DNA of 64,000 nucleotides from an uncultured Omnitrophica bacterium (GTDB taxonomy: Bacteria > Omnitrophota > Gorgyraeia > JACQQV01), in contig CAMTXH010000003.1 in the NCBI GenBank assembly GCA_947085655.1, positions 29,850 through 93,849 on the forward strand. Direction: 5' to 3'. The notes below the pieces were generated by a model. That model did no database searches. It was given only the letters and a program-made list of their open reading frames with translations, and was not told the DNA's origin. Both the position numbers and the translations under genes were made by a program. Below are positions 25,002-48,797 of this stretch, in pieces; position 1 is the stretch's first letter, and each line of letters opens with the position of its first letter.

Positions 25002-25825
25002 GTCTCATTGTGATCACCAAAAACGAAGAGGCGAATCTCCGCGAATGCCTGGAGAGCGCGGAGGGACTTCCGGATGAAATTGTCATCGTGGACGATGAGA
25101 GCACGGACCGGACCCGGGAGATTGCACGGGAGTTTACCGATAAAATTTACAGCCGGAAGATGGACCTGGAAGGACGCCACCGGAACTGGGCCGCCTCCCG
25201 TGCCACCCACGACTGGGTGCTCTGGATGGATGCGGATGAACGGATGACGCCGGAACTCAAAGAAGAAATCCGCCAAACCCTCTCGCAGAGCAATGCCAAC
25301 ATCGCCGCCTACTGGATTCCCCGGAAAAACTATCTCGGAAAGAGGTGGCTGAAACATGGCGGCTGGTACGCGGCGCACATCAAACTTTACGACCGGCGGC
25401 TGACCCGTTGGCGGGAAGTGGTGCATGATGTGGTGCACCCAGGAATTGACATCGCGGAGGGGTATAGCGGGAAGGAGTTGAAAAAGCCGCTCATTCATTA
25501 CAATTTCAAGAACATAGAGGATTTTATCCAGAAGGTAAACCGGCACTCTACCTTTGAGGCGGTGAAGTGGCATCTACAGGGGAAGAGGATCACCCTTTGG
25601 CACGGGCTTTGGAAGGCCTTTGACCGTTTTTGGAAGCGTTACGTTTATAAAATGGGTTTCCTGGACGGTCTTGAGGGATTCGTTGCCGCTTTCTTGAGCG
25701 GGTTTTATCAGTTCGCCGCCTATTGCAAGTTCCGGGAAATTCGGAAAGAGGGGATTTATCTGGACCGTGTGGCTCCATCTCCTGACACAAAAGAACAACC
25801 CATTCAGCCCTCCGTGCCCCTGTAG
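24980..25825 (+). CDS. glycosyltransferase family 2
   Basis: The product contains LSLIVITKNEE...IVIVDDESTD...DADE, a GT-A DxD fold. It overlaps the upstream gene by 22 nt. Confidence 0.85.
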   Translation: MAERKKLSLIVITKNEEANLRECLESAEGLPDEIVIVDDESTDRTREIAREFTDKIYSRKMDLEGRHRNWAASRATHDWVLWMDADERMTPELKEEIRQTLSQSNANIAAYWIPRKNYLGKRWLKHGGWYAAHIKLYDRRLTRWREVVHDVVHPGIDIAEGYSGKELKKPLIHYNFKNIEDFIQKVNRHSTFEAVKWHLQGKRITLWHGLWKAFDRFWKRYVYKMGFLDGLEGFVAAFLSGFYQFAAYCKFREIRKEGIYLDRVAPSPDTKEQPIQPSVPL

Positions 25826-25892
25826 CTCAGATGGATAGAGCAGAGGTTTCCTAAACCTCGTGTCGGGAGTTCGAATCTTCCCAGGGGCACCA
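25816..25892 (+). tRNA. tRNA-Arg (anticodon CCU)
   Basis: The cloverleaf is read by eye. The acceptor stem is GCCCCTG/CAGGGGC, followed by A and CCA. The anticodon loop TTCCTAA gives anticodon CCT. T-arm GTTCGAATC. The 5' end overlaps the GT2 stop codon. Confidence 0.88.
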
Positions 25893-32180: not shown

Positions 32181-33383
32181 TCAGGCGGCGACTTCGTTCA
32201 AGAGGGTGAGAAACGCTTCCGAGACGCGGGGATCGAATTGACTGCCGATGTTCCGCTTGATTTCAAGGATGGCATCCGGCACACTCATCGCTTTCCGGTA
32301 GGCCCGGTCCGTGGTCATTGCATCAAAAGCATCCGCCAGTGAGACCACGCGGGCAATGGTCGGAATAGTCTCCCCAATGAGTCCATCCGGATAGCCGTTT
32401 CCATCATACCTTTCATGGTGGTTCCGCACGACGCTGATGCCATGATGGAGAAAGCGGAGCGGCTCCAGCATTTCAGCGCCGCGGCTCGGGTGGAGCTCGA
32501 TCTGCGCCCGCTCCGTCACCGTCAATTTTCCCGGTTTGTCCAGAATCTGGTCCGGAATCGCAATCTTTCCGATATCATGGAGTTTCCCGGTGGAGCGGAT
32601 GGCATCCAACTCCGTTTCGGCCAGTCCGATCCTCCGTCCCATCTCCAGGGCATAGCGGGTCACCCGTTCCGCATGGCCCCGCGTATACGAATGACGCGCC
32701 TCCATCGCCATCACAAGAGCGTTGATGGTGTCCAGGTATCCGACCTGTGTCTCTTCGTGCAGCTTGGCGTTTTTAATCGCAAGGGCCGTTTGAGAGGCGA
32801 AAGTGGAGAGGAGCCGTTTCTGTTTGGAGGTGAAGACGCCGGGTTGTCGCCCGTAGACGGTCAGCGTGCCGAGGACCTCGTCATAAAAAAGGATTGGGGA
32901 AGACATGATGGAGCGATACCCCTCCTCAACCACCAGTTGCGGATATCGGACCCTGTCGTCCTTCAAGACGTCATCGACCAAAATGATGATTCTTTCCTTA
33001 ATAGCCCGCCCCGGGATTCCTTCTCCCAGTTTCAGGGGGGTTTTAAGGAGGTAATCATTCGCAAGACCGTAAACCGATCCGGGGGGGAGGAGTTTTTTCT
33101 CTTCATTGTAGAGCCGGAGGGAACAAGCATCCGCCTTCATGATTTCGGCGACGAGACGGACCACCAAATCCGAAACATCCGAAAAGGTGGGAAAGCTGAC
33201 CAGCCCGTTTGAAACCTGAAAGACCGCTTCCAGTTCCCGGTTCAGATGCTGAAGATAGTCACTCCGGGCAAGCGCCTTTTTTTTGAAGCTTTGAGCGAGG
33301 GTTTGGTACTTCTGGAGGTTTTGTTGGAGGACGTCAACCTTTTTGGAGCGGGGACTCTTCCTTTTTTGAGATATTCCCATCAA
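32181..33383 (-). CDS. GAF sensor domain / HD-GYP domain protein (putative c-di-GMP phosphodiesterase)
   Basis: An N-terminal GAF domain is followed by an HD domain with HD...HHERYDGNGYP. Confidence 0.85.
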   Translation of the reverse strand: MMGISQKRKSPRSKKVDVLQQNLQKYQTLAQSFKKKALARSDYLQHLNRELEAVFQVSNGLVSFPTFSDVSDLVVRLVAEIMKADACSLRLYNEEKKLLPPGSVYGLANDYLLKTPLKLGEGIPGRAIKERIIILVDDVLKDDRVRYPQLVVEEGYRSIMSSPILFYDEVLGTLTVYGRQPGVFTSKQKRLLSTFASQTALAIKNAKLHEETQVGYLDTINALVMAMEARHSYTRGHAERVTRYALEMGRRIGLAETELDAIRSTGKLHDIGKIAIPDQILDKPGKLTVTERAQIELHPSRGAEMLEPLRFLHHGISVVRNHHERYDGNGYPDGLIGETIPTIARVVSLADAFDAMTTDRAYRKAMSVPDAILEIKRNIGSQFDPRVSEAFLTLLNEVAA

Positions 33384-34619: not shown

Positions 34620-35203
34620 TGGAACGAATGGACGTTAAAGAAGTTTCGATTTCGGAGTGGGTGCGGGAGTTCCTGCACCAGATCGGCGAGGATCCTTCAA
34701 GGGCCGGGCTTTTGAAAACACCCGAGCGGTTTGAGAAGAGCATCCGATATCTGACGAGCGGCTATGAAAAGGACATCCGGTCGGTCCTGAACGGCGCTCT
34801 GTTTGAAGAGCCCTACGATGAAATGGTGACGGTTCGGGATATCGAGCTTTTCAGTCTTTGCGAACACCATCTCCTTCCTTTTTACGGCAAGTGTCATGTG
34901 GCCTACATTCCGGACGGTCGCCTCATCGGTCTTTCCAAGATCCCGCGTCTGGTGGATGTTTTTGCGAGACGCCTCCAGGTCCAGGAGCGGCTCACCAACC
35001 AGATCGCCACCTCCCTCCAGGAGATTTTGAAACCGCAGGGGGTGGCGGTGGTGATTGAGGCGTTTCATCTCTGCATGGCGATGCGCGGGGTCGAAAAACA
35101 GAATGCCTTTGCCGTCACCAGTACCATGCTCGGGGTCTTTCGAAAGGATCCCCGTTCGCGGTCTGAGTTCATGACGCTGATTCAAAGCGAGCGGCGCAAG
35201 TGA
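34616..35203 (+). CDS. folE: GTP cyclohydrolase I
   Basis: The 195-aa product contains CEHHLLPF and the FolE signature. It overlaps queD by 4 nt. Confidence 0.95.
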
Positions 35204-35412
35204 ATTGTAAAATTTTTTTTGTCTTGGGCATCCTTTTATCAGGATGCGCGGCCTCTTCTGCCACGAACCGCCCCTACCGAGATCCCGTCACCTATTCCTT
35301 TGAGGCCTACACCCCCCATCAAAAAGAGGAAGGCCCGATGAACCAGTTTCTCACCCACATGAAGGAATCCGCCCGCACCATTCAGGATTGGGAAAAGAAA
35401 CACCTCTGGTAG
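35200..35412 (+). CDS. small hypothetical lipoprotein
   Basis: The 70-aa product has a lipobox LLSGC. Its GTG start overlaps the folE stop. Confidence 0.45.
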
Positions 35413-35467
35413 CCCTTTTTTATTGAAGCTTTGAATTTCCATTGCCATTTATTTAAAGGAGGGTTGC

Positions 35468-35881: not shown

Positions 35882-35964
35882 ACTCCGCCAGAAGCGGGGT
35901 AAACCTTTTTCAAGCCCCTCCGTCTAATACGACAGAAACCCGAAAAACGGAGGAGGAAAAAAAG

Positions 35965-36849
35965 ATGAGAAAGACACCATTAGCAGTTTTGATTTCGCTC
36001 TTATTCCTTGGTATACAAGGAGTTCCGGCGATTGCCGAGGAGGCCGAGAACGGTTTGGTTGAGGCCACCCGAGAAGAGGAGATCGCTCTTCGGGCCCTAA
36101 AACAAAAAGACCCCGAGGTGTATCGGAAGCATATTGCCGAAAAAAAGGAGAAACTTCGGGAGCGGCTGAAGCAACTAAGGGAAGAGGACATTGAGAAATT
36201 TCATGAGGTCATGAAGCAGCATCAAAACGCCCGGAGGCGGCACCTTTCCAATCTTAAGGAAAAAGATCCGGAGAAATTCCGGGAAATCATGCATCGGCGA
36301 AGAGAAGCACTAGAGCAGAGACTGCACGAACTGAGGGAGAATCATCCCGAGCGGTACGAAGAGATCATGAAGCGCCGGCAGGCACACCGTCATGAGGGAA
36401 AACATCACGACCGGCATGGGGAACATCACGACCGGCACGAAGATCGCCGGGATAGACGGGAAGATATTCGGGACCGGAGAGAAGATATCCGAGACACCCA
36501 GCATGACGGCGGTGTAAGGGATCGAATTGAGGATCGGCATGACCGGCGTGAGGATCGTTGGGATCGCCGGGAAGACCGGTTTGATCAGCGAGAGAACCGT
36601 TGGGACCGGCGTGAAGGCCGGTATGACCGGAGAGAGGATGTCCGGGACCGTTTTGAGGACCGATTCGACCGTCGGGACGACGCCCATGAGCGGGTCATTG
36701 AAAGAAGAGAAGGGGCAATGGACCGGCTCTCCGGAACACCTGCTAACCGGCGGGCGGTAGAACGTCACGGTCAAAATATCGAGCGTTATCGGGAAAAACA
36801 GGGAGGCGGCGGAGGACGTCATGGCGGCAGAGGAGATCGCGGCCGTTAA
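35965..36849 (+). CDS. secreted Spy/CpxP/ZraP-like periplasmic protein with His-rich segment and long Arg/Asp/Glu repeat tail
   Basis: A signal peptide is present. Three LxxxDPExYRxxI repeats in helical segments precede HHDRHGEHHDRH and about 20 copies of DRRED/DRFED-like motifs. Confidence 0.6.
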   Translation: MRKTPLAVLISLLFLGIQGVPAIAEEAENGLVEATREEEIALRALKQKDPEVYRKHIAEKKEKLRERLKQLREEDIEKFHEVMKQHQNARRRHLSNLKEKDPEKFREIMHRRREALEQRLHELRENHPERYEEIMKRRQAHRHEGKHHDRHGEHHDRHEDRRDRREDIRDRREDIRDTQHDGGVRDRIEDRHDRREDRWDRREDRFDQRENRWDRREGRYDRREDVRDRFEDRFDRRDDAHERVIERREGAMDRLSGTPANRRAVERHGQNIERYREKQGGGGGRHGGRGDRGR

Positions 36850-37435
36850 TGCCGCATCCGATCTCGACCTGGTTCACCGTGTTCAGGAACACGATGATCT
36901 CAGGGCATACGAAACCCTTGTCAGGCGCTATGAGAAAGAAGCATTCGGCCTTGCCTATACCCTTGTGGGAGACCGGGAAGAAGTGAAAGACCTGCTTCAA
37001 GAAAGTTTTTTCAGTCTCTACCGATCCATCAAAATGTACCGCGGCGAGGCAAGTTTCAGGACCTATTTTTTCAAAATCGTTGTGAACCGGTGCCGGGATG
37101 CCCAGCGAAGAAAGAGTTCCTGGGGAAAAATCTTCTGGTCCCCCTCAGCCGACATTGAGGGGGAATCCCTGGAGGGAATCACGGAGAAGACTCCCTCTGA
37201 TGCTTTGATCCGGACGGAACTCGGCCGGGAGATTCATTCGGCACTGAAACGACTCCCGTGGCGCCAGCGAACCGTTTTCTCCTTGAAATTCATGGAAGGG
37301 ATGAAGATCCGTGAAATTGCGGAGATGACCGGCTTGAGCGAAGGAACCGTGAAAGCCACCCTTTTCCATGCCGTCTTGAAAATGCGGCAGGCCCTTAAAA
37401 CCGCGCTCGGTTTGGAGTCGGAGGTACACTCATGA
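36821..37435 (+). CDS. ECF (sigma-24 family) RNA polymerase sigma factor
   Basis: The 204-aa product has sigma70 regions 2 and 4 (FMEGMKIREIAEMTGLSEGTVKA). It overlaps the upstream gene by 29 nt. Confidence 0.85.
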   Translation: MAAEEIAAVNAASDLDLVHRVQEHDDLRAYETLVRRYEKEAFGLAYTLVGDREEVKDLLQESFFSLYRSIKMYRGEASFRTYFFKIVVNRCRDAQRRKSSWGKIFWSPSADIEGESLEGITEKTPSDALIRTELGREIHSALKRLPWRQRTVFSLKFMEGMKIREIAEMTGLSEGTVKATLFHAVLKMRQALKTALGLESEVHS

Positions 37436-38052
37436 ACTGTCGCACATTGCAGGAAAGATTGATCGAATCTTTTGACCAGGAACGGTCACCGGAGGAGACT
37501 TCCCATCTTTCCGCCTGTTCCGCATGCCTGGGACTGTTCGAGGAACTCAAGCGATTCCGGTCCGAAATAAAGAAAGCTCAGGCCGCACCGGATACCGCCT
37601 TTTTCGATGAGATGCGCCGAGGGCTTTTTGCACAAATCCGGGAAAACCGTCCCTCGAAGGAGATCCGGGTCACTCCCATTTTCCGAAAAGAGCGGATTCC
37701 GGTTTGGGCACCGGTGCTGGCCGGCCTTTTAGTCCTCGCGCTCATCCCGGTCCTCCTCTCCCGTCAACAGCTCCCGACGATTCAGGGGGACCTTGCCTTT
37801 CTCGGCGCGCTGGAGACAGTCGAGGGGGAAGTTTCGATAGAAGTCTATCCGGAGGATCCGGTCCTCCTGGAAGAGGAGATTGCGATCACGGATGAACTGC
37901 TCCTTGCCCAGTCGGAGGAACCGGAAGGGGAGGTCTGGATTCAGGAAACCTTCCAGCTTTTGGAGACGCTGGAAGAGACGGAGGACCTTGAGTCTGACCC
38001 GGCCCTTCTGGAGGAAGAGTTCCTTTTTTTGGATGAGGTCCTTTCGGGATAA
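37432..38052 (+). CDS. anti-sigma factor (zinc-finger ZAS-like, single TM)
   Basis: HLSACSACLGLFEE is an H..C..C motif. A TM helix is followed by an acidic periplasmic tail. The ATGA overlap with the ECF sigma indicates translational coupling. Confidence 0.7.
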   Translation: MNCRTLQERLIESFDQERSPEETSHLSACSACLGLFEELKRFRSEIKKAQAAPDTAFFDEMRRGLFAQIRENRPSKEIRVTPIFRKERIPVWAPVLAGLLVLALIPVLLSRQQLPTIQGDLAFLGALETVEGEVSIEVYPEDPVLLEEEIAITDELLLAQSEEPEGEVWIQETFQLLETLEETEDLESDPALLEEEFLFLDEVLSG

Positions 38053-38055
38053 CGG

Positions 38056-38084
38056 TTGACATTTTCCCTTAAGCGTGTTAAATT
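38056..38084 (+). promoter_or_regulatory. candidate promoter TTGACA-N17-TAAATT upstream of gatC
   Basis: Sequence match only. The -10 abuts the RBS, so the position is uncertain. Confidence 0.35.
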
Positions 38085-39831: not shown

Positions 39832-41270
39832 TGAGCGATTACGAACCGGTCATCGGTCTTGAGGTGCATGTGGAACTCTCCACCGAGACCAAGGTTTTCT
39901 GCGGCTGCCCGACCCGTTTCGGGGCGGAGCCAAATACGCAGACCTGTCCGGTTTGTCTGGGGTTTCCCGGGTCGCTGCCGGTCTTAAACCGGAAAGCACT
40001 TGAATACGGCATCAAAACGGCCCTCGCTCTTCATGGGACGATCTCCCCCCTCATCAAATTTGACCGGAAAAATTATTTTTACCCTGATCTTCCGAAAAAC
40101 TACCAGATCTCCCAATACGATCTTCCCCTTGGGAGAGGCGGGTACATCATGGTGGAAGGGGATACCGGAAAGAAAAAAATCCGGATTCACCGGGTTCATC
40201 TGGAGGAGGATACGGGGAAACTGATTCATCCGGAGGCAAGCCCCACGAGTCTTCTGGATTTCAACCGCTCGGGCATCCCTCTCCTTGAGATTGTGAGTGA
40301 GCCGGACATCCGGACGCCGGATGAGGCGCATGCGTATGCGACAGCCCTGAAAGCGAACCTTGAATATCTGGATGTGTCGGACTGCAACATGGAGCAGGGG
40401 AGTCTCCGGTGTGATACGAACGTCTCGGTCCGGAAGAAGGGACAAGAAACCTTCGGAACCAAAGTAGAGATCAAAAATCTCAACTCATTCCGCGCGGTCA
40501 AGTTGAGCGTGCAGTATGAAATCGACCGCCAGATCCGCCAACTGGAAGCGGGCGGGAAACTGGTTCAGGAAACAAGGCTCTGGGATCCGGCGAAAAACGC
40601 GACTTTTCCGATGCGCTCGAAGGAGTATGCGCATGACTACCGTTATTTCCCGGAGCCGGACCTTGTCCCGTTTGTTCTTTCCAAAGGGGAAATCGAAGCG
40701 CTCCGGGAAACGATTCCGGAACTTCCGGAGGAGCGGATGGAACGGTTTGTGAAGGGCTATCAACTCCCCCCTTATGACGCCAAGGTGTTGACGAGTGAGA
40801 AGGCCCTTTCCGACTACTTTGAGGCCTCTGTCCGGCTTTTTTCGAATCCCAAGCAAGTTGCCAACTGGGTGATCGGTCCCGTATTAGAGCATGCCAAGAC
40901 TCCGGAAGGGATCGCCTCTTTTGCCGTTCCTCCGGAACGTCTGGTGGAACTCCTCCGGTTTCTGGAGTCGGGGAAAATCACCCAACTGGCGGCCAAACAG
41001 GTTCTGGAGGAGATGGTGCGGACAAAAGAACCGGCCGCCGCCGTGATCCAGCGCGAGAATCTCTCTCAAATCCAGGATACGGGGACCCTGGAACACCTCA
41101 TTCAGGAGGCGATTCGGGAAAATCCGAAGACGGTCGCAGACTACCATCAGGGGAAAGAAAATGCTATGATGTATCTGATAGGCCAGGTGATGAAAAAGAC
41201 AAAAGGAAGCGCCAATCCCAAAAAAGTGAATGTACTTCTCAAGGAAAAATTGGAGGAGGCAAAACCATGA
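39828..41270 (+). CDS. gatB: Glu-tRNA(Gln) amidotransferase subunit B
   Basis: The 480-aa product belongs to the GatB/YqeY family. Confidence 0.95.
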   Translation: MMSDYEPVIGLEVHVELSTETKVFCGCPTRFGAEPNTQTCPVCLGFPGSLPVLNRKALEYGIKTALALHGTISPLIKFDRKNYFYPDLPKNYQISQYDLPLGRGGYIMVEGDTGKKKIRIHRVHLEEDTGKLIHPEASPTSLLDFNRSGIPLLEIVSEPDIRTPDEAHAYATALKANLEYLDVSDCNMEQGSLRCDTNVSVRKKGQETFGTKVEIKNLNSFRAVKLSVQYEIDRQIRQLEAGGKLVQETRLWDPAKNATFPMRSKEYAHDYRYFPEPDLVPFVLSKGEIEALRETIPELPEERMERFVKGYQLPPYDAKVLTSEKALSDYFEASVRLFSNPKQVANWVIGPVLEHAKTPEGIASFAVPPERLVELLRFLESGKITQLAAKQVLEEMVRTKEPAAAVIQRENLSQIQDTGTLEHLIQEAIRENPKTVADYHQGKENAMMYLIGQVMKKTKGSANPKKVNVLLKEKLEEAKP

Positions 41271-42553
41271 AGAAGCGTCTTTTGGGGGTCCTGCTGCTTT
41301 TGTTTCTCTTCGGTGCCGGTTCGTTTTCCCTGAATGCCGCCGAGAAGCCCGCGAAGGAAGAAAGCAATTTCTATGAGGACCTGGAGCTCTTCACGGACGC
41401 CCTTTCCATCATTCAGCTCGATTATGTGGAGGAAAAGACCTCCAAGGATCTGATTTACGGGGCGCTCAAGGGGATGCTGAAGAGTCTGGATCCCCACAGT
41501 CAGTTCATGACGCCGGACATCTATCAGGAGGTCAAGATCGAAACCGAGGGGGAATTCGGGGGACTCGGTATCGAAATCACCATTCAGGATGAACTCCTCA
41601 CGATTATTTCCCCCATTGATGACACCCCCGCCCACCGGGCCGGACTGAGGGCGGGGGACCGGATCGTCAAAATCGACGGAGAACTCACCCGCGACATCAC
41701 CCTTCTGGATGCGGTCAAGAAACTCCGCGGAAAACCGGGGACCGAGGTCACGTTGAGCATCTTGCGGGAAAAGGAGGAAAAGCTCATGGACCTGAAGGTT
41801 GTCCGGGACGTGATCAAAATTAAAAGCATCAAGGAAGCGGAGATCCTGGGGGACGATATCGGTTATATCCGGCTCTCCGAGTTTCAGGAAAATACCCCCC
41901 GTGACCTTAACCGCGCATTGAAGCAACTGGAGGATAAAAAGATCAAGGGTTTGGTGCTGGATCTCCGGAATAACCCCGGAGGACTTTTGAATACCGCAGT
42001 GTCCGTTGCGGAACATTTTGTTCCGAAAGGGGAATTGATCGTTTACACGAAAGGGAGGAGGGAAAACCAGGATATCGAATTCCGCTCGCGGGGCAGATAT
42101 GCCCCGCCCTCTTATCCGGTTGTGGTTTTGATTAACGGGGGATCCGCCAGCGGTTCGGAAATTCTGGCGGGGGCGATTCAAGATCATCGGCAGGGGATCC
42201 TTCTCGGGACAAAGACGTTCGGAAAGGGATCCGTCCAGACGGTCGTGCCGCTCAAAGACGGTTCGGCGGTCCGGTTGACAACGAGCAAATACTACACTCC
42301 CAAGGGCCGGATGATTCACGAAAAGGGGATTGAGCCGGATGTGGAGGTCCCTTTTGTGGAGCGGAAGGTCCCCGAGAAGGAAAAGAGCGAAGAAGTCTTC
42401 GAAAAAATTGAAGAAGAAAAAGAGACCGAAGAGACCAAAGAAGAAAAGGAAAGAAAGCGAAAGTTGCAGGAAAAAGTCTTTCTGGATAATCAACTGGAAC
42501 GGGCCATCGACCTGATCAAAGGGATTGATGTCTATCGGACCATCGGCGGATGA
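41267..42553 (+). CDS. ctpA: carboxyl-terminal processing protease (S41)
   Basis: The product has a signal peptide, a PDZ domain and an S41 catalytic domain. It has a Lys/Glu-rich C-terminus. Confidence 0.9.
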   Translation: MKKRLLGVLLLLFLFGAGSFSLNAAEKPAKEESNFYEDLELFTDALSIIQLDYVEEKTSKDLIYGALKGMLKSLDPHSQFMTPDIYQEVKIETEGEFGGLGIEITIQDELLTIISPIDDTPAHRAGLRAGDRIVKIDGELTRDITLLDAVKKLRGKPGTEVTLSILREKEEKLMDLKVVRDVIKIKSIKEAEILGDDIGYIRLSEFQENTPRDLNRALKQLEDKKIKGLVLDLRNNPGGLLNTAVSVAEHFVPKGELIVYTKGRRENQDIEFRSRGRYAPPSYPVVVLINGGSASGSEILAGAIQDHRQGILLGTKTFGKGSVQTVVPLKDGSAVRLTTSKYYTPKGRMIHEKGIEPDVEVPFVERKVPEKEKSEEVFEKIEEEKETEETKEEKERKRKLQEKVFLDNQLERAIDLIKGIDVYRTIGG

Positions 42554-45185: not shown

Positions 45186-45199
45186 TTTTCCCGCATACC

Positions 45200-45370
45200 G
45201 ATAAGGGCAAACCGCGGGAGACCGCGGGACATCCGCGAGTGAGGCATTCATCCTCCGGATTCCCCGCCAGAGCGGCGGGGAGCAAAGCCATGGGTCCTTA
45301 AAACGGTGAAGGGTGTCAGAACACCTAACACCACACGCCGTTTTACAGGATCGCCAGGCTGCCGAAGTAA
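45200..45370 (+). promoter_or_regulatory. structured 5' leader with c-di-GMP-I (GEMM)-like motifs
   Basis: GGGCAAACC-CCGCGG-GAGA-CCGCGG-GAC (45205-45230) mirrors the Vc2 riboswitch P2 arm GGGCAAACC-stem-GNRA-stem-GGGAC. GCAAAGCC lies at 45282-45289. Further hairpins are CCCCGCC-agag-GGCGGGG and UAAAACGG...CCGUUUUA. The spacing between the two motif blocks is longer than in the canonical aptamer. Confidence 0.3.
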
Positions 45371-45386
45371 CGAAGGAGAATGCCTC

Positions 45387-45842
45387 ATGAGAAAACGGGA
45401 AAAGGGATTTACCCTTGTCGAAGTCTTAACTACCTCTTGCATTGTCTCCCTGATTGCCCTCCTGGCGATACCCAATTTTGTCAGGGTTTGGCAGGATGTG
45501 AATGAAAGGACCGCCCAGGAAACACTCCGGACCATTCACCAGGCGATGATTTCCTACCGGGGATTCAATTTAAGTTATCCATCCGATCTTACGGAATTGG
45601 CCGATTCCCAAGGGGGCCCTTACTATCTGAATCAGAGTGTGGCAAGCGGGAAAAAATCGGGCTACCTTTATCGTCTGGATTCGAGCGACAAATATACGTT
45701 CCGCGTTACCGCGATTCCAGAAAATCCCGGTGTGAGCGGAAAACGGTCCTTTGTCGTGACGGAAGCAGGCCTTATCGAGACAAACTCCAGTACTGTCACC
45801 ATTGTTCCGAACGCCACAGAACCTGGCCTGGACGGCAGGTAA
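45387..45842 (+). CDS. type IV pilin / pseudopilin (prepilin-type N-terminal cleavage/methylation domain)
   Basis: MRKREKGFTLVEVLTTSCIVSLIALLAIP carries the class III signal G/FTLVE. A GAAGGAG RBS is present. Confidence 0.8.
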   Translation: MRKREKGFTLVEVLTTSCIVSLIALLAIPNFVRVWQDVNERTAQETLRTIHQAMISYRGFNLSYPSDLTELADSQGGPYYLNQSVASGKKSGYLYRLDSSDKYTFRVTAIPENPGVSGKRSFVVTEAGLIETNSSTVTIVPNATEPGLDGR

Positions 45843-45929: not shown

Positions 45930-48797
45930 GTGTCCAGACGGAAAATAATTTTTCTTTTTATCCCAATTTTTCTTTTATCGACTCCTTTAGAAGGGGCGGT
46001 GAATGAAGATGCAATCCGCTACCGGATCCGGGGCTACCAACTCCAGCACCAGGGCTATGTGGAGGAAGCGATCGAACTCTACCGGAAGGCGATCGAGGCG
46101 GACCCGAACTATGCTGCTCCCCACAATGACCTGGGCGTCATTTACGAAGAACGGGGGGATCTGAAACTGGCGGAAGGGGAGTACCTGGAAACACTCCGGA
46201 TCGACCCCCAATACGTCGATGCCTATTCCAATCTTGCCATTCTCTACGGCAAACAGAATCAAAGAGAAAAGATGCTTGAAATGCTGAAAAAGCGGGTTGA
46301 CTTGGGGGAGCCGGAGGATATCGGAACCCGCGAGGCGCAGGCGAAACTGGATTCTTTGGGTGTGGTGACGGAAATTCCCGAGAAACCCCGGCCCGCTGTT
46401 CCTCCTTTTGAGAAAAGACCTTCTGCCGAAATCAGGCCCCTGAAGGAGATTCCGGAAGCCCCTCCGGTTGTAGAGGCAAAGGAGGAGCAAAAGGCGCTCC
46501 GGGAGGAAATGAAGGCGGTTAAAAAGGAAATTTTAGAGAAAGAAACGGCTGCGCGAAAACTGGAGGATCGGGAGAAAGCGGTTCAGGTTGTTGAAGAGCC
46601 TGCTGCTGAAAAAGCGGCGGCACTCCGGAATGAAGGGTTGAAACACCACCAAAAGGGCGAGCTGGATGAGGCGATCCGGAATTACCGGGAGGCGATCCGC
46701 ATGAACCCCGATTTTGCAACCGCCTACAACGACCTGGGAATTGCCCTGGAGGAAAAAGGGTTTCTGGAAAACGCCGAGACCCAATACCTGAATGCACTGG
46801 CACTCGATCCTTCCTACACCCATGCCCTCTATAACCTCGCTCTTCTCTACGCCAAAATGGAACGGCGGAAAGAGGCGATTCAAACCCTTGAAGAATTTCT
46901 GAAAAAGAAAGTGGACAGCAAGCGGAGCGGCGTCGCCCGGGCCAAACTCGAAGTCCTTTTGAATGAGGAAAAAGAAGAGGCCGAGCGGCTTGCCCGGGAA
47001 CAAGAGGCCAAACGGCTCGAAGCAGAGGCGAAACGCCGCCAGGAGGAGGAAGCAAGGAAGCGGGAAGAGGCTTTGGCGTCTCTCCGGGGGGAAGTCGAGA
47101 AAGAGGTCAAAGCCGAATATGAAGAGAAATTCAAACTGACCCAATTTTTTGAGCAGGGCAAGGTCGCTTTTCAAAACGGGGATTACCCGACGGCAAAAGA
47201 CCTCTTTGAAAAACTCCTCGTGATCGACCCGGAAAACGAAATGGGAAAAACCTATCTCGCCAAGGTTGAGGAAGCCGTTCAGGAAGCGGAACGGAAAAAA
47301 GAGATAGAAGCCGAAAGACAACGACAAGAGGCGGAAGAGGCGCGCCGGATGGAAGAGGAGAAAAGAGTGAAAGAGGAAGAGAAACAAAAGCGTACGACAG
47401 CCCTTTATGATGAAGCGAAAGAGATGTACCGTTCCGGCAATCTGGATAATGCCCTTCTCCGCTTTCAGGAGATTCTGATCCTCGAACCGGAACATCCCTA
47501 TGCAGGACGGTATGTGGATCGGATTCGGGAACGAAAAGAGGAACTTGAGGCGGAGAGGATCGCCCGTGAGAAGGCGGCCCGTGAGGAAGACCAGGCGCGC
47601 CGGCGCCAAATCGCCGAGTATTTTGAGGAAGCGGAAAAACAGGTTCGGGAGCGTTCCTACGACGAAGCAATCAAGACGTATCGAGAACTTCTTTTACTCG
47701 ACCCGGAGCATAAAGAGGCGAATCGACGGCTTGAGGAGATCCGGGAGACCCTCCGGAAAAAGAAAGAGGAAAAACATCTCGCCAAAATCCGCAAAAAAGA
47801 GACACGTCTTGAAGGTGCCGAGAAGCGGATGAAAGAATCGGCTCAGACGTATTACCAAGCAGGGCTCAAAGCGTTCCGGGAGGAAAAACTGGATCAGGCC
47901 GAATATGCGTTCCGAAAGGTCCTTTCATACGACAAAAGTCACAAAGAGGCGAATAAGCAGCTTGTCCTCTTGATGGAAAAACAGGCGGAGCTGGAGGCAA
48001 GGGTCTGGCGGGAGGAACAGGAGGCCATTTTCCGAAAGGAATACACCCCCGCCGAAGAAAAACGGCTTTACGAACGGGCAAAGGCGGCTTATGACGCGGG
48101 GGATTATCGGATGGCGCAGAAAACGCTCGAGTATCTCCTTTTTCTTGACCCGAATCATCCGTTTGCGCCGAGGGATCTGGATGAAGTGGAGGCCAAAATC
48201 CGGGTAGCGCATCAAAAGGAGGCGGTGGCCGAGGCGGCCCTCAAAAAGGAAGCTCGGAAAACCCTTTCCCGTCCTCCCTCTGTCAGTGTGACTGAACCTT
48301 TTCTCCGGGCTCAAACCAAGCCCCAGGAAATCCCCTATTTCCGGCCGTCCCCTTCCGATCGGCTGGATGCTTTCGTGGAGGATGAACCGGTTTGGACAGA
48401 CGCGCACCAGGCGATGGAAAGGGTCGCCCTTGCCTACCATCAGCAGGCGTATGACCTTCAACGTCAGAACGACGTTGAAGGGGCCATTGCCCAATACCGG
48501 AAGGCGATGGCGATCCGCTCGACACCGGGGGCGGCGAACAGTTTGGGTGTCTTGTATGAAAAGAAGGGATGGTACACCCAAGCGGAACAGTATTACAAAA
48601 AAGCGCTGAGACTTGATCCGGCGTATCTGGCGGCCCATACGAATCTGGCCCTTCTCTATGAGGATTTGGAGCGCAAGGAGGAGGCCCTGGCCCACTGGCG
48701 GATCCGGGCCGAGCAAGGGAAAAAGGGAGAGGCGTGGACTGAGCACGCCCGGCGCCGCCTTGAGGCGGTTCAGGCGGTTCCTGAAAAGAACCCTTGA
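45930..48797 (+). CDS. large secreted TPR-repeat protein with interspersed Lys/Glu/Arg-rich coiled-coil segments
   Basis: The 955-aa product has a signal peptide and a GTG start after a GGAGGA RBS. Pairs of TPR motifs (AxxYxNLGxxY) recur about 8 times and are separated by EEAERLAREQEAKRLE-type charged helices. Confidence 0.75.
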   Translation: MSRRKIIFLFIPIFLLSTPLEGAVNEDAIRYRIRGYQLQHQGYVEEAIELYRKAIEADPNYAAPHNDLGVIYEERGDLKLAEGEYLETLRIDPQYVDAYSNLAILYGKQNQREKMLEMLKKRVDLGEPEDIGTREAQAKLDSLGVVTEIPEKPRPAVPPFEKRPSAEIRPLKEIPEAPPVVEAKEEQKALREEMKAVKKEILEKETAARKLEDREKAVQVVEEPAAEKAAALRNEGLKHHQKGELDEAIRNYREAIRMNPDFATAYNDLGIALEEKGFLENAETQYLNALALDPSYTHALYNLALLYAKMERRKEAIQTLEEFLKKKVDSKRSGVARAKLEVLLNEEKEEAERLAREQEAKRLEAEAKRRQEEEARKREEALASLRGEVEKEVKAEYEEKFKLTQFFEQGKVAFQNGDYPTAKDLFEKLLVIDPENEMGKTYLAKVEEAVQEAERKKEIEAERQRQEAEEARRMEEEKRVKEEEKQKRTTALYDEAKEMYRSGNLDNALLRFQEILILEPEHPYAGRYVDRIRERKEELEAERIAREKAAREEDQARRRQIAEYFEEAEKQVRERSYDEAIKTYRELLLLDPEHKEANRRLEEIRETLRKKKEEKHLAKIRKKETRLEGAEKRMKESAQTYYQAGLKAFREEKLDQAEYAFRKVLSYDKSHKEANKQLVLLMEKQAELEARVWREEQEAIFRKEYTPAEEKRLYERAKAAYDAGDYRMAQKTLEYLLFLDPNHPFAPRDLDEVEAKIRVAHQKEAVAEAALKKEARKTLSRPPSVSVTEPFLRAQTKPQEIPYFRPSPSDRLDAFVEDEPVWTDAHQAMERVALAYHQQAYDLQRQNDVEGAIAQYRKAMAIRSTPGAANSLGVLYEKKGWYTQAEQYYKKALRLDPAYLAAHTNLALLYEDLERKEEALAHWRIRAEQGKKGEAWTEHARRRLEAVQAVPEKNP

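Follow-up and report, generated by a model that had tools for sequence, protein, structure and literature searches.

Within a 64,000-nt stretch of contig CAMTXH010000003.1 from an uncultured Omnitrophica bacterium (hereafter the window), three genes on the + strand form a compact unit: gene A (35965-36849, 294 aa) codes for a secreted, all-helical protein, gene B (36821-37435, 204 aa) for an extracytoplasmic function (ECF) sigma factor, and gene C (37432-38052, 206 aa) for a single-pass anti-sigma factor. The first-pass annotation of this DNA had proposed a three-gene envelope or metal stress module, and comparison bore out an envelope-signaling module, as the order A/sigma/anti-sigma recurs in more than 30 independent loci with a conserved promoter ahead of its first gene. 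On the basis of sequence comparison we propose, holding the chances to be about even, that protein A binds the acidic extracytoplasmic tail of anti-sigma factor C and tunes its stability.

Open reading frame (ORF) coordinates together with the sequence confirmed both of the junctions described earlier, namely, a 29-nt overlap between gene A and the sigma gene B, and an ATGA junction between gene B and the anti-sigma gene C. The ribosome-binding site of gene B sits within the Gly-rich 3' end of gene A. Protein A itself consists of a signal peptide, a domain of 26-residue helical repeats (the N-domain), a module of Arg- and Asp-rich heptads broken by an HDGG motif (the RD/HDGG module), and a Gly/Arg-rich C-terminal tail.

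The three-gene unit and its promoter are conserved

Related loci were collected by a scan of GTDB species representatives, which yielded at least 80 loci, and by a metagenome scan seeded with the N-domain alone, which added 21 more. Downstream sigma genes were identified by tblastn and with a hidden Markov model built from the same sigmas. At least 21 loci from GTDB and 13 from metagenomes have a sigma gene immediately downstream of the gene A homologue; those from GTDB are labeled Omnitrophota, Planctomycetia/Planctomycetales, Eisenbacteria, and, in one case, Gammaproteobacteria. Homologues of gene A devoid of the RD/HDGG module are also sigma linked (L094, L095, L098, and L100 to L102). The gene after the sigma codes every time for a protein with one transmembrane segment and an acidic tail (net charge, -6 to -31; 40 to 107 aa). 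A zinc motif is present in the cytoplasmic part of a subset only of these partner proteins, and the acidic tail is there regardless. Motifs that recur in the tails include EEIAALRELGxWTEEDE or a C-terminal LL.EL..LD..ELAS.

The window operon is preceded by an ECF-type promoter, GTAAACCTTTTTCAAGCCCCTCCGTCTAAT (35899-35928, +), with TAAACC as the -35 element and CGTCTAAT as the -10 element, 37 nt before the start codon of gene A. The consensus across loci is [GT]TAAACCTTTT-N11-13-CGTCTAAT, i.e., [GT]TAAAC[CT]TTTT-N11-13-CGTCTAAT, and the element is located 34 to 96 nt before the start of gene A in 15 of the 17 GTDB loci examined and in most metagenome loci. An AAC/CGT architecture is that of ECF promoters, and we take the AAC...GTCTAA-type promoter of the operon to resemble sigma-E-type promoters. 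We scanned 105 loci (1.37 Mb counting both strands) with the pattern [GT]TAAAC[CT]T-N12-16-CGTC[TC]A and found it in 32 of them, on the gene strand every time, where about 0.4 chance matches were expected from its information content. In 31 of these loci the site precedes a gene A homologue or falls inside an ORF that had been called too long for it; the remaining site, in L074, is upstream of a stand-alone RD gene and appears to be coincidental. The conservation of this ECF-type site ahead of gene A argues that the operon is probably autoregulated, with sigma B transcribing from its own promoter. The operon's own copy is the single occurrence of the motif in the 64-kb window, and the motif scan thus revealed no further regulon members there.

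Gene B codes for an ECF sigma factor and gene C for an anti-sigma factor with an acidic tail

The product of gene B matched Sigma70_r2 (PF04542, E=3e-15) and Sigma70_r4_2 (PF08281, E=3e-17), with no Pfam match for a sigma region 3 domain, and it scored 113 bits with TIGR02937, whose cut-off is 42.9. The ECF sigma assignment is thus secure, although no specific NCBIfam equivalog scored above its cut-off. Its nearest solved relatives are AlgU (E=3e-23), RpoE (E=3e-16), and SigW (E=8e-16), with CnrH far off (E=3e-7).

Gene C had been described as coding for a zinc-binding anti-sigma (ZAS)-type protein with one transmembrane helix. Its cytoplasmic domain carries the motif HLSACSAC (HxxxCxxC) at aa 25 to 32 (37504-37527, +), which, together with a Cys near the N terminus (C3...H25LSAC29SAC32), conforms to the ZAS pattern H/C-x(22-26)-H-x3-C-x2-C. 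The same zinc motif with a Cys 26 residues upstream was found in L008, L011, L013, L030, L038, and L076. A hydropathy scan placed one transmembrane segment at aa ~91 to 109 (37702-37758, +), and the remainder forms an acidic extracytoplasmic tail of 97 aa with a net charge of -28 (37759-38049, +). The motif and the single transmembrane segment therefore stand, but matches to curated models are lacking: zf-HC2 did not match at E<=0.1 in Pfam, the NCBIfam anti-sigma models scored far below their cut-offs (NF052375, 17.5 bits versus 100; RsrA, 15.1 versus 62.5), and no PDB relative was found. The identification of gene C follows from its position downstream of the sigma gene and its coupling to it, an architecture shared by about 40 loci.

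Protein A carries a secreted domain of Pro-capped helical repeats

Protein A is predicted to be secreted or periplasmic, as a Sec-type signal peptide (aa 1 to 25; 35965-36039, +) can be read from the sequence as MRKTPLAVLISLLFLGIQGVPAIA followed by EE, with an AxA site and cleavage after AIA. Nearly all gene A homologues have a signal peptide. The N-domain (aa 28 to 147; 36046-36405, +) consists of four 26-aa repeats of the form L..LK..DPE.[FY]...M, modeled as five Pro-capped helices. Helical repeats of the type LxxxDPExYRxxI had been recognized before, but there are four of 26 residues rather than three; the second had escaped the count because it is degenerate, with EDIEKF in place of DPEKF. 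In an AlphaFold2 model of the full protein, built on a 15-sequence alignment, the mean predicted local distance difference test (pLDDT) score was 75, and the N-domain appeared as five Pro-punctuated helices with pLDDT >90. Modeled alone, the N-domain reached a pLDDT of 93 and a predicted template modeling score (pTM) of 0.61.

A protein search retrieved homologues with 30 to 46% identity over 60 to 80% of the length, almost all of them metagenomic and one in an Omnitrophica metagenome-assembled genome (MAG). When 1.84 billion representatives were searched with an N-domain profile, 365 representative clusters matched at E<=1e-3. The family is basic, the mature proteins having a median net charge of +16 and 94% of them being positive, and the RD tail is missing in 140 of its 143 top members. 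No Pfam or NCBIfam model covers the N-domain, and protein A had no match at E<=0.1. The commonest sub-threshold Pfam matches of the 143 members (E<=0.01) were DUF3135, XPC-binding, and Ribosomal_S15, which were not treated as homology because all of them come about through the short helix-cap motif 'L..DPE.F'.

The N-terminal repeats had been likened to the periplasmic stress proteins Spy, CpxP, and ZraP. This resemblance found no support in Pfam/NCBIfam, PDB profile, or Foldseek searches. Neither LTXXQ (PF07813) nor Metal_resist (PF13801) matched protein A at E<=0.1, and neither was among the 25 families most often matched by the 143 members (E<=0.01). Among the chains retrieved at E<=10 by PDB profile searches with full and N-domain alignments, none was CpxP, Spy, ZraP, or CnrX; the top match was the C-terminal hairpin of ribosomal protein S15 (E=0.01). 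Similarly, neither the full model nor the N-domain model of pLDDT 93 retrieved a chain with the bent alpha-helical hairpin (cradle) fold of these proteins in Foldseek searches of the PDB at E<=10; RbcX and S15 came closest, with E values of 2 to 4. The L[TS]xxQ motif is absent from the window protein and from the sigma-linked homologues, with one instance (L049) among the 81 homologues scanned. In the face of these results, we consider it very improbable that protein A is a divergent CpxP/Spy/ZraP (LTXXQ) periplasmic chaperone or modulator, even though it is periplasmic and all helical, has repeated helix-cap motifs, and is encoded with an envelope-signaling system, and even though an unrelated protein (P0105) joins a sub-threshold LTXXQ/Spy-like N terminus to the same RD/HDGG tail. 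Family membership is thus not supported; protein A may be a functional analog of the CpxP group.

Like protein A, DUF3106 proteins (PF11304) are secreted and built of helical repeats, in which an 'L.PE.R' helix-cap motif recurs, but their repeat period is about 22 to 23 residues versus 26 in protein A. Homology of the N-domain to DUF3106 was rejected, as hhalign gave probabilities of 51% and 11% with two DUF3106 proteins and PF11304 did not match.

The RD/HDGG module is a conserved pattern of charged heptads

The N-domain is followed by the RD/HDGG module (aa 149 to 243; 36409-36693, +), in which about 13 D-R-R-E-D-x-R heptads are split by an invariant HDGG helix break (aa 180 to 183; 36502-36513, +). 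The earlier description of degenerate DRREDxRDR repeats was right as to their presence, but not as to their number, which is about 13 and not about 20 (four before the HDGG-containing heptad and eight to nine after it). The AlphaFold2 model shows helices at 151 to 179 and 184 to 251, with a break at HDGG and block-mean pLDDT values of 67 to 91. Across the heptads of 107 unique homologous segments, D occupies position a in 96 to 100% and position e in 86 to 100%, and E occupies position d in 99 to 100%, while positions b, c, and g are R (65 to 85%) and f is V, I, or R. D and E are never swapped at the acidic positions, and a central core, D-A-x-H-D-G-G-x-x-D-[RK]-[LI]-E-D, is fixed, so that the tail is not plain low complexity. 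The module is charge neutral, with 34 K+R versus 38 D+E. From the sequence logic, each RD helix is predicted to have positions d, a, and e on one face, as an acidic ridge, and b, c, and g on the opposite face, as a basic one; salt bridges at i/i+3 and i/i+4, E(d)-R(g) and R(b)-D(e), could then run continuously along it. The predicted helix and its heptad salt-bridge pattern recall ER/K single alpha-helices and 'charge zipper' helices; unlike those, the RD module is periplasmic, places D and E strictly, has the fixed HDGG break, and segregates its acidic and basic ridges.

Imperfect tandem repeats had also been reported at the DNA level around 36400-36700. Tandem Repeats Finder did detect one array there (36535-36636, period of 42, 2.4 copies, 75% matches), but the repetition is weak, the 21-nt copies that code for RD heptads being 67 to 88% alike. 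Since the protein pattern is conserved in the 107 segments while the DNA copies have diverged to this extent, selection at the protein level is indicated; the heptads are old, with the pattern kept across phyla.

The His-rich patch noted earlier is present, as HHDRHGEHHDRH at aa 147 to 158. At the DNA level it is a perfect tandem repeat of a 21-nt unit coding for the heptad HGEHHDR (36396-36443, +), with two copies in the window and four in assembly GCA_964374045.1. On NCBI contig CAYJWX010000011.1 of that assembly, the sigma and anti-sigma genes are 100% identical to those of the window, and gene A (L107 3103-4029) codes for 308 aa: all 885 nt are identical, and a 42-nt insertion supplies two extra 21-nt HGEHHDR units, with zero other mismatches. 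A Logan short-read contig of the same locus (L108 1-420) starts exactly inside the His repeat. The patch is absent from gene A homologues and confined to this lineage, so that it represents either a recent, unstable, lineage-specific expansion or, as regards the difference between two and four copies, an assembly collapse. Being lineage specific and of variable copy number, it is not part of the conserved design, and the suggestion that the His/RD tail is a metal-binding trait does not describe a property of the family.

The first-pass annotation had regarded absence or instability of the repeat region in relatives as a sign of an artifact. The RD heptads are conserved across phyla, and only the His-heptad copies vary. 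That the RD region is a low-complexity or assembly artifact, non-coding or misframed, has in our estimate next to no chance of being correct. The exact 294-aa product is absent from the protein collection, one short-read contig breaks within the His repeat, and a long antisense ORF overlaps the region, which would all fit an artifact; however, the frame runs on from the conserved N-domain, the heptads keep their residues at each position in many phyla, and the NCBI assembly has the same gene, differing only by the two extra 21-nt units. The antisense ORF (170 aa; 36310-36822, -) runs across the RD-coding region as a by-product of repetitive, GA-rich codons and is unsupported as a gene.

The Gly/Arg-rich C-terminal tail (36715-36846, +) was modeled with low confidence, and it is its coding sequence that holds the ribosome-binding site of the sigma gene. 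A recurrent C-terminal tail of the form 'GVRD[HY]G.G.G.G.GQGG..RR' ends many proteins of both the N-domain and the RD families (e.g., P0010, P0011, P0144, L020, L023, L043, and L072), the window copy being degenerate. It could serve in sorting or anchoring, or act as a feature at the RNA level.

The RD/HDGG module is widespread in uncultured bacteria

The statement that the repeat tail has no obvious precedent holds for curated libraries, in that no Pfam or NCBIfam model covers the RD/HDGG module, but the module is widespread in uncultured bacteria. The GTDB scan gave at least 111 confirmed relatives among the first 600 pattern matches. Secreted proteins with the module are found in Bacteroidota, Gemmatimonadota, Alphaproteobacteria, Bdellovibrio-like bacteria, Planctomycetota, and Omnitrophota. 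Stand-alone RD/HDGG proteins are secreted and 96 to 150 aa long, and their hosts include Chitinophagaceae, Saprospiraceae, Gemmatimonadaceae, Hyphomonadaceae, Micavibrio, and Bdellovibrio-like bacteria. Their genes have no consistent neighbors among 98 neighbor proteins (RpiB occurred six times and an M28 peptidase four times). From these distributions, the N-domain and the RD/HDGG tail are best described as independent modules, the tail being an optional add-on to the N-domain family.

The module also occurs in other fusions: to EF-hands (L047, L051, L066, and L077), to RcnB (P0027, P0047, and others), to glycine-zipper domains, and, in P0105, to the LTXXQ/Spy-like N terminus mentioned above. 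These fusions bear on the possibility that the RD/HDGG tail, with or without the His heptads, binds divalent cations or metals and that the unit is a metal or cation stress sensor of no CpxP ancestry. The EF-hand, RcnB, and LTXXQ-like partners would suit such a function, as would the virtually invariant, unswapped carboxylates at a, d, and e of every heptad and the His-rich patch that the window protein adds. We nevertheless consider it unlikely. The RD module is charge neutral, unlike known high-capacity cation binders, and its HDGG loop fails EF-hand models: the stand-alone proteins had no EF-hand match at E<=1, and the loop, whose third position varies between R, K, and Q, is unlike the canonical DxDxDG...E. 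Furthermore, the His patch does not occur in homologues and varies in copy number, and the RD tail is missing in most sigma-linked family members.

Several other architectures were observed. A second, unrelated helical N-domain, 'QWQ..A..EE..L..QI..A..SGD...AK.L..QL...HQEN', precedes the RD/HDGG module in L020, L023, L072, P0006, P0025, and P0037, and no sigma gene was found near it in the three loci scanned (L020, L023, and L072). In two Omnitrophota MAGs (L043, 1576-4696; L068, 1092-4723), an ECF sigma, a ZAS anti-sigma with an acidic tail, a DUF3106 protein, and a large secreted RD/HDGG protein are encoded together, the last of these also bearing 'HP[GE]VAK..Y..R.WL' repeats in L068. In the gammaproteobacterial loci L047 and L077, the gene for an EF-hand and RD protein is followed by those for a sigma and an acidic-tail anti-sigma.

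A model in which protein A acts on the anti-sigma factor

In the model that we propose, the promoter at 35899-35928 would drive the three translationally coupled genes, with sigma B reading its own promoter and protein A as the first product. The cytoplasmic Cys...HxxxCxxC domain of C would hold sigma B, while the exported, basic protein A would bind the acidic ectodomain of C in the periplasm and tune the stability or proteolysis of C, as both a co-sensor and a feedback element; the loop would arise because sigma B would also induce A. Protein A would thus be functionally like RseB on RseA, CnrX on CnrY, and CpxP on CpxA, although unrelated to each of them. The model is supported by the pairing of a basic A family with uniformly acidic anti-sigma tails. 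In addition, A proteins richer in RED/RDD motifs tend to be paired with more negatively charged partner tails (Spearman 0.45, p=0.008, n=33, without phylogenetic correction), which is suggestive. The recurrent gene order, seen also for homologues devoid of the RD tail, and the conserved promoter speak for the model as well, as do the two further architectures (L043 and L068; L047 and L077) in which RD proteins are encoded with acidic-tail anti-sigmas.

A number of observations weigh against this model. The correlation of charges is modest, and shared ancestry confounds it. The acidic positions of the RD heptads (~96 to 100%) are more invariant than the arginines (65 to 85%), which would not be expected if the arginines contacted an acidic partner. 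Most stand-alone RD proteins have no nearby sigma and no consistent neighbors, and one close homologue of gene A (L004/P0002) is an orphan with a sigma-70-like promoter. Finally, an effector could take the first place in a probably autoregulated operon just as readily as a regulator.

These last points would agree with another possibility, that protein A is what the system makes in response to stress, a protective protein of the periplasm (hydrophilin- or chaperone-like, or ion buffering), the anti-sigma factor sensing the signal alone, e.g., by binding of cations or polycations to its acidic tail. As the first gene of a probably autoregulated operon whose promoter is single in the window, gene A is presumably the most expressed; RD/HDGG proteins are mostly small, stand-alone, and secreted without a nearby sigma; the orphan homologue has its sigma-70-like promoter; and the N-domain has a weak apolipoprotein-like and S15-like amphipathic helix character. 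However, under several phylum-level labels gene A has long stayed strictly linked to the sigma gene that it overlaps, as regulatory partners typically do, and the basic A family and acidic anti-sigma tails covary, which suggests contact. We regard an output role, the main rival to the model, as possible but somewhat doubtful; the two roles are moreover compatible, as CpxP is both.

The model of A as a partner of the anti-sigma factor has counterparts in several known systems. As in RpoE-RseA-RseB and AlgU-MucA-MucB, a sigma that is nearest to AlgU and RpoE among solved structures is encoded with a single-pass anti-sigma and a soluble periplasmic protein in one operon, which here is probably autoregulated. 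Unlike in those systems, there was no Pfam match to RseA_N or RseA_C in the window operon nor to MucB_RseB in protein A, the periplasmic protein is encoded first and not third and is an all-helical basic repeat protein, and the anti-sigma ectodomain is a short acidic tail. CpxP, Spy, and ZraP are likewise small, basic, all-helical periplasmic proteins induced by the pathway on which they feed back, and CpxP probably engages the acidic sensor domain of CpxA through its basic surface. No similarity between them and protein A was detected in sequence, motif, or fold, and protein A would have an anti-sigma factor for a partner in place of a histidine kinase. CnrYXH of Cupriavidus and the ECF281 and ECF290 groups are also three-component ECF units, in which a helical periplasmic sensor protein acts on a small anti-sigma and the regulators can stand before the sigma. 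In contrast, protein A has no PF13801 or CnrX similarity, and CnrH (E=3e-7) is a distant relative of sigma B in comparison with AlgU. The ECF281 and ECF290 operons carry a conserved periplasmic helical PF13801 'heavy-metal resistance' protein at +2, downstream of the sigma (PMC7826278), whereas gene A is at -1.

The general design of an ECF sigma, an anti-sigma, and a periplasmic accessory protein is therefore already known. New here, with no curated family or literature found, are the DPE-capped 26-residue repeat domain, the polyacidic anti-sigma tail, the RD/HDGG module, and the promoter; we found no literature on the three-gene module, on the function of DUF3106, or on acidic-tail anti-sigmas. 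To our knowledge, no signaling system has been studied in Omnitrophota and in MAG lineages labeled as Planctomycetota-Verrucomicrobiota-Chlamydiota (PVC). With one promoter and three genes, the operon is a clean test system that is easily transferred.

That the acidic heptad positions of the RD/HDGG module are almost absolutely invariant calls for a structural explanation. Speculatively, and with a low expectation of being right, the module might be a new, phylum-spanning, secreted, 'charge-segregated' helical hairpin that serves as a periplasmic electrostatic sensor and gates the fate of the anti-sigma via its polyacidic tail. Its rigid helix pair, with a D/E/D ridge and an Arg ridge, could report, e.g., divalent-cation or polycation status or envelope spacing. 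If true, such a sensor joined to the Pro-capped 26-residue repeat domain would represent an unrecognized three-component ECF signaling mechanism in Omnitrophota and related uncultured bacteria.

Borders of the operon and neighboring genes

The unit is bordered on the left by a terminator-like hairpin with a T-run at the end of the upstream yjbQ gene (35882-35900, +), and gene A has a strong Shine-Dalgarno sequence, GGAGGAGG (35949-35956, +). On the right, a sigma-70-like promoter, TTGACA-17-TAAATT (38056-38084, +), precedes gatC and thus the gatCAB genes. The flanking genes are housekeeping genes, with an M23 peptidase gene, a queD-like 6-pyruvoyl tetrahydropterin synthase gene, folE, and yjbQ upstream and gatCAB downstream.

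The gene directly after gatB (41267-42553, +) codes for a C-terminal processing protease of the S41 type that is CtpB-like and has a PDZ domain. We considered this protease as a site-1 protease for the anti-sigma factor, whose relatives terminate in a conserved LD..ELAS motif, and rejected it, as no such gene is found near any related locus.

Between folE and yjbQ, a 70-aa ORF on the + strand (35200-35412) has a lipoprotein-like N terminus (LLSGC). For the identical region of L107, NCBI annotates a minus-strand ORF of 69 aa instead (window 35239-35448, -, corresponding to L107 2377-2586).

A cyclic di-GMP-I riboswitch aptamer (RF01051; 38.4 bits, gathering score 35) was detected at 45196-45366 (+). 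Downstream of it are two ORFs, 45306-45842 and 45930-48797 (955 aa). A protein with GAF and HD(-GYP-like) domains is encoded at 32181-33383 (-), near this riboswitch-bearing region of the window. A single tRNA gene (RF00005, 63 bits) is located at 25816-25889 (+).

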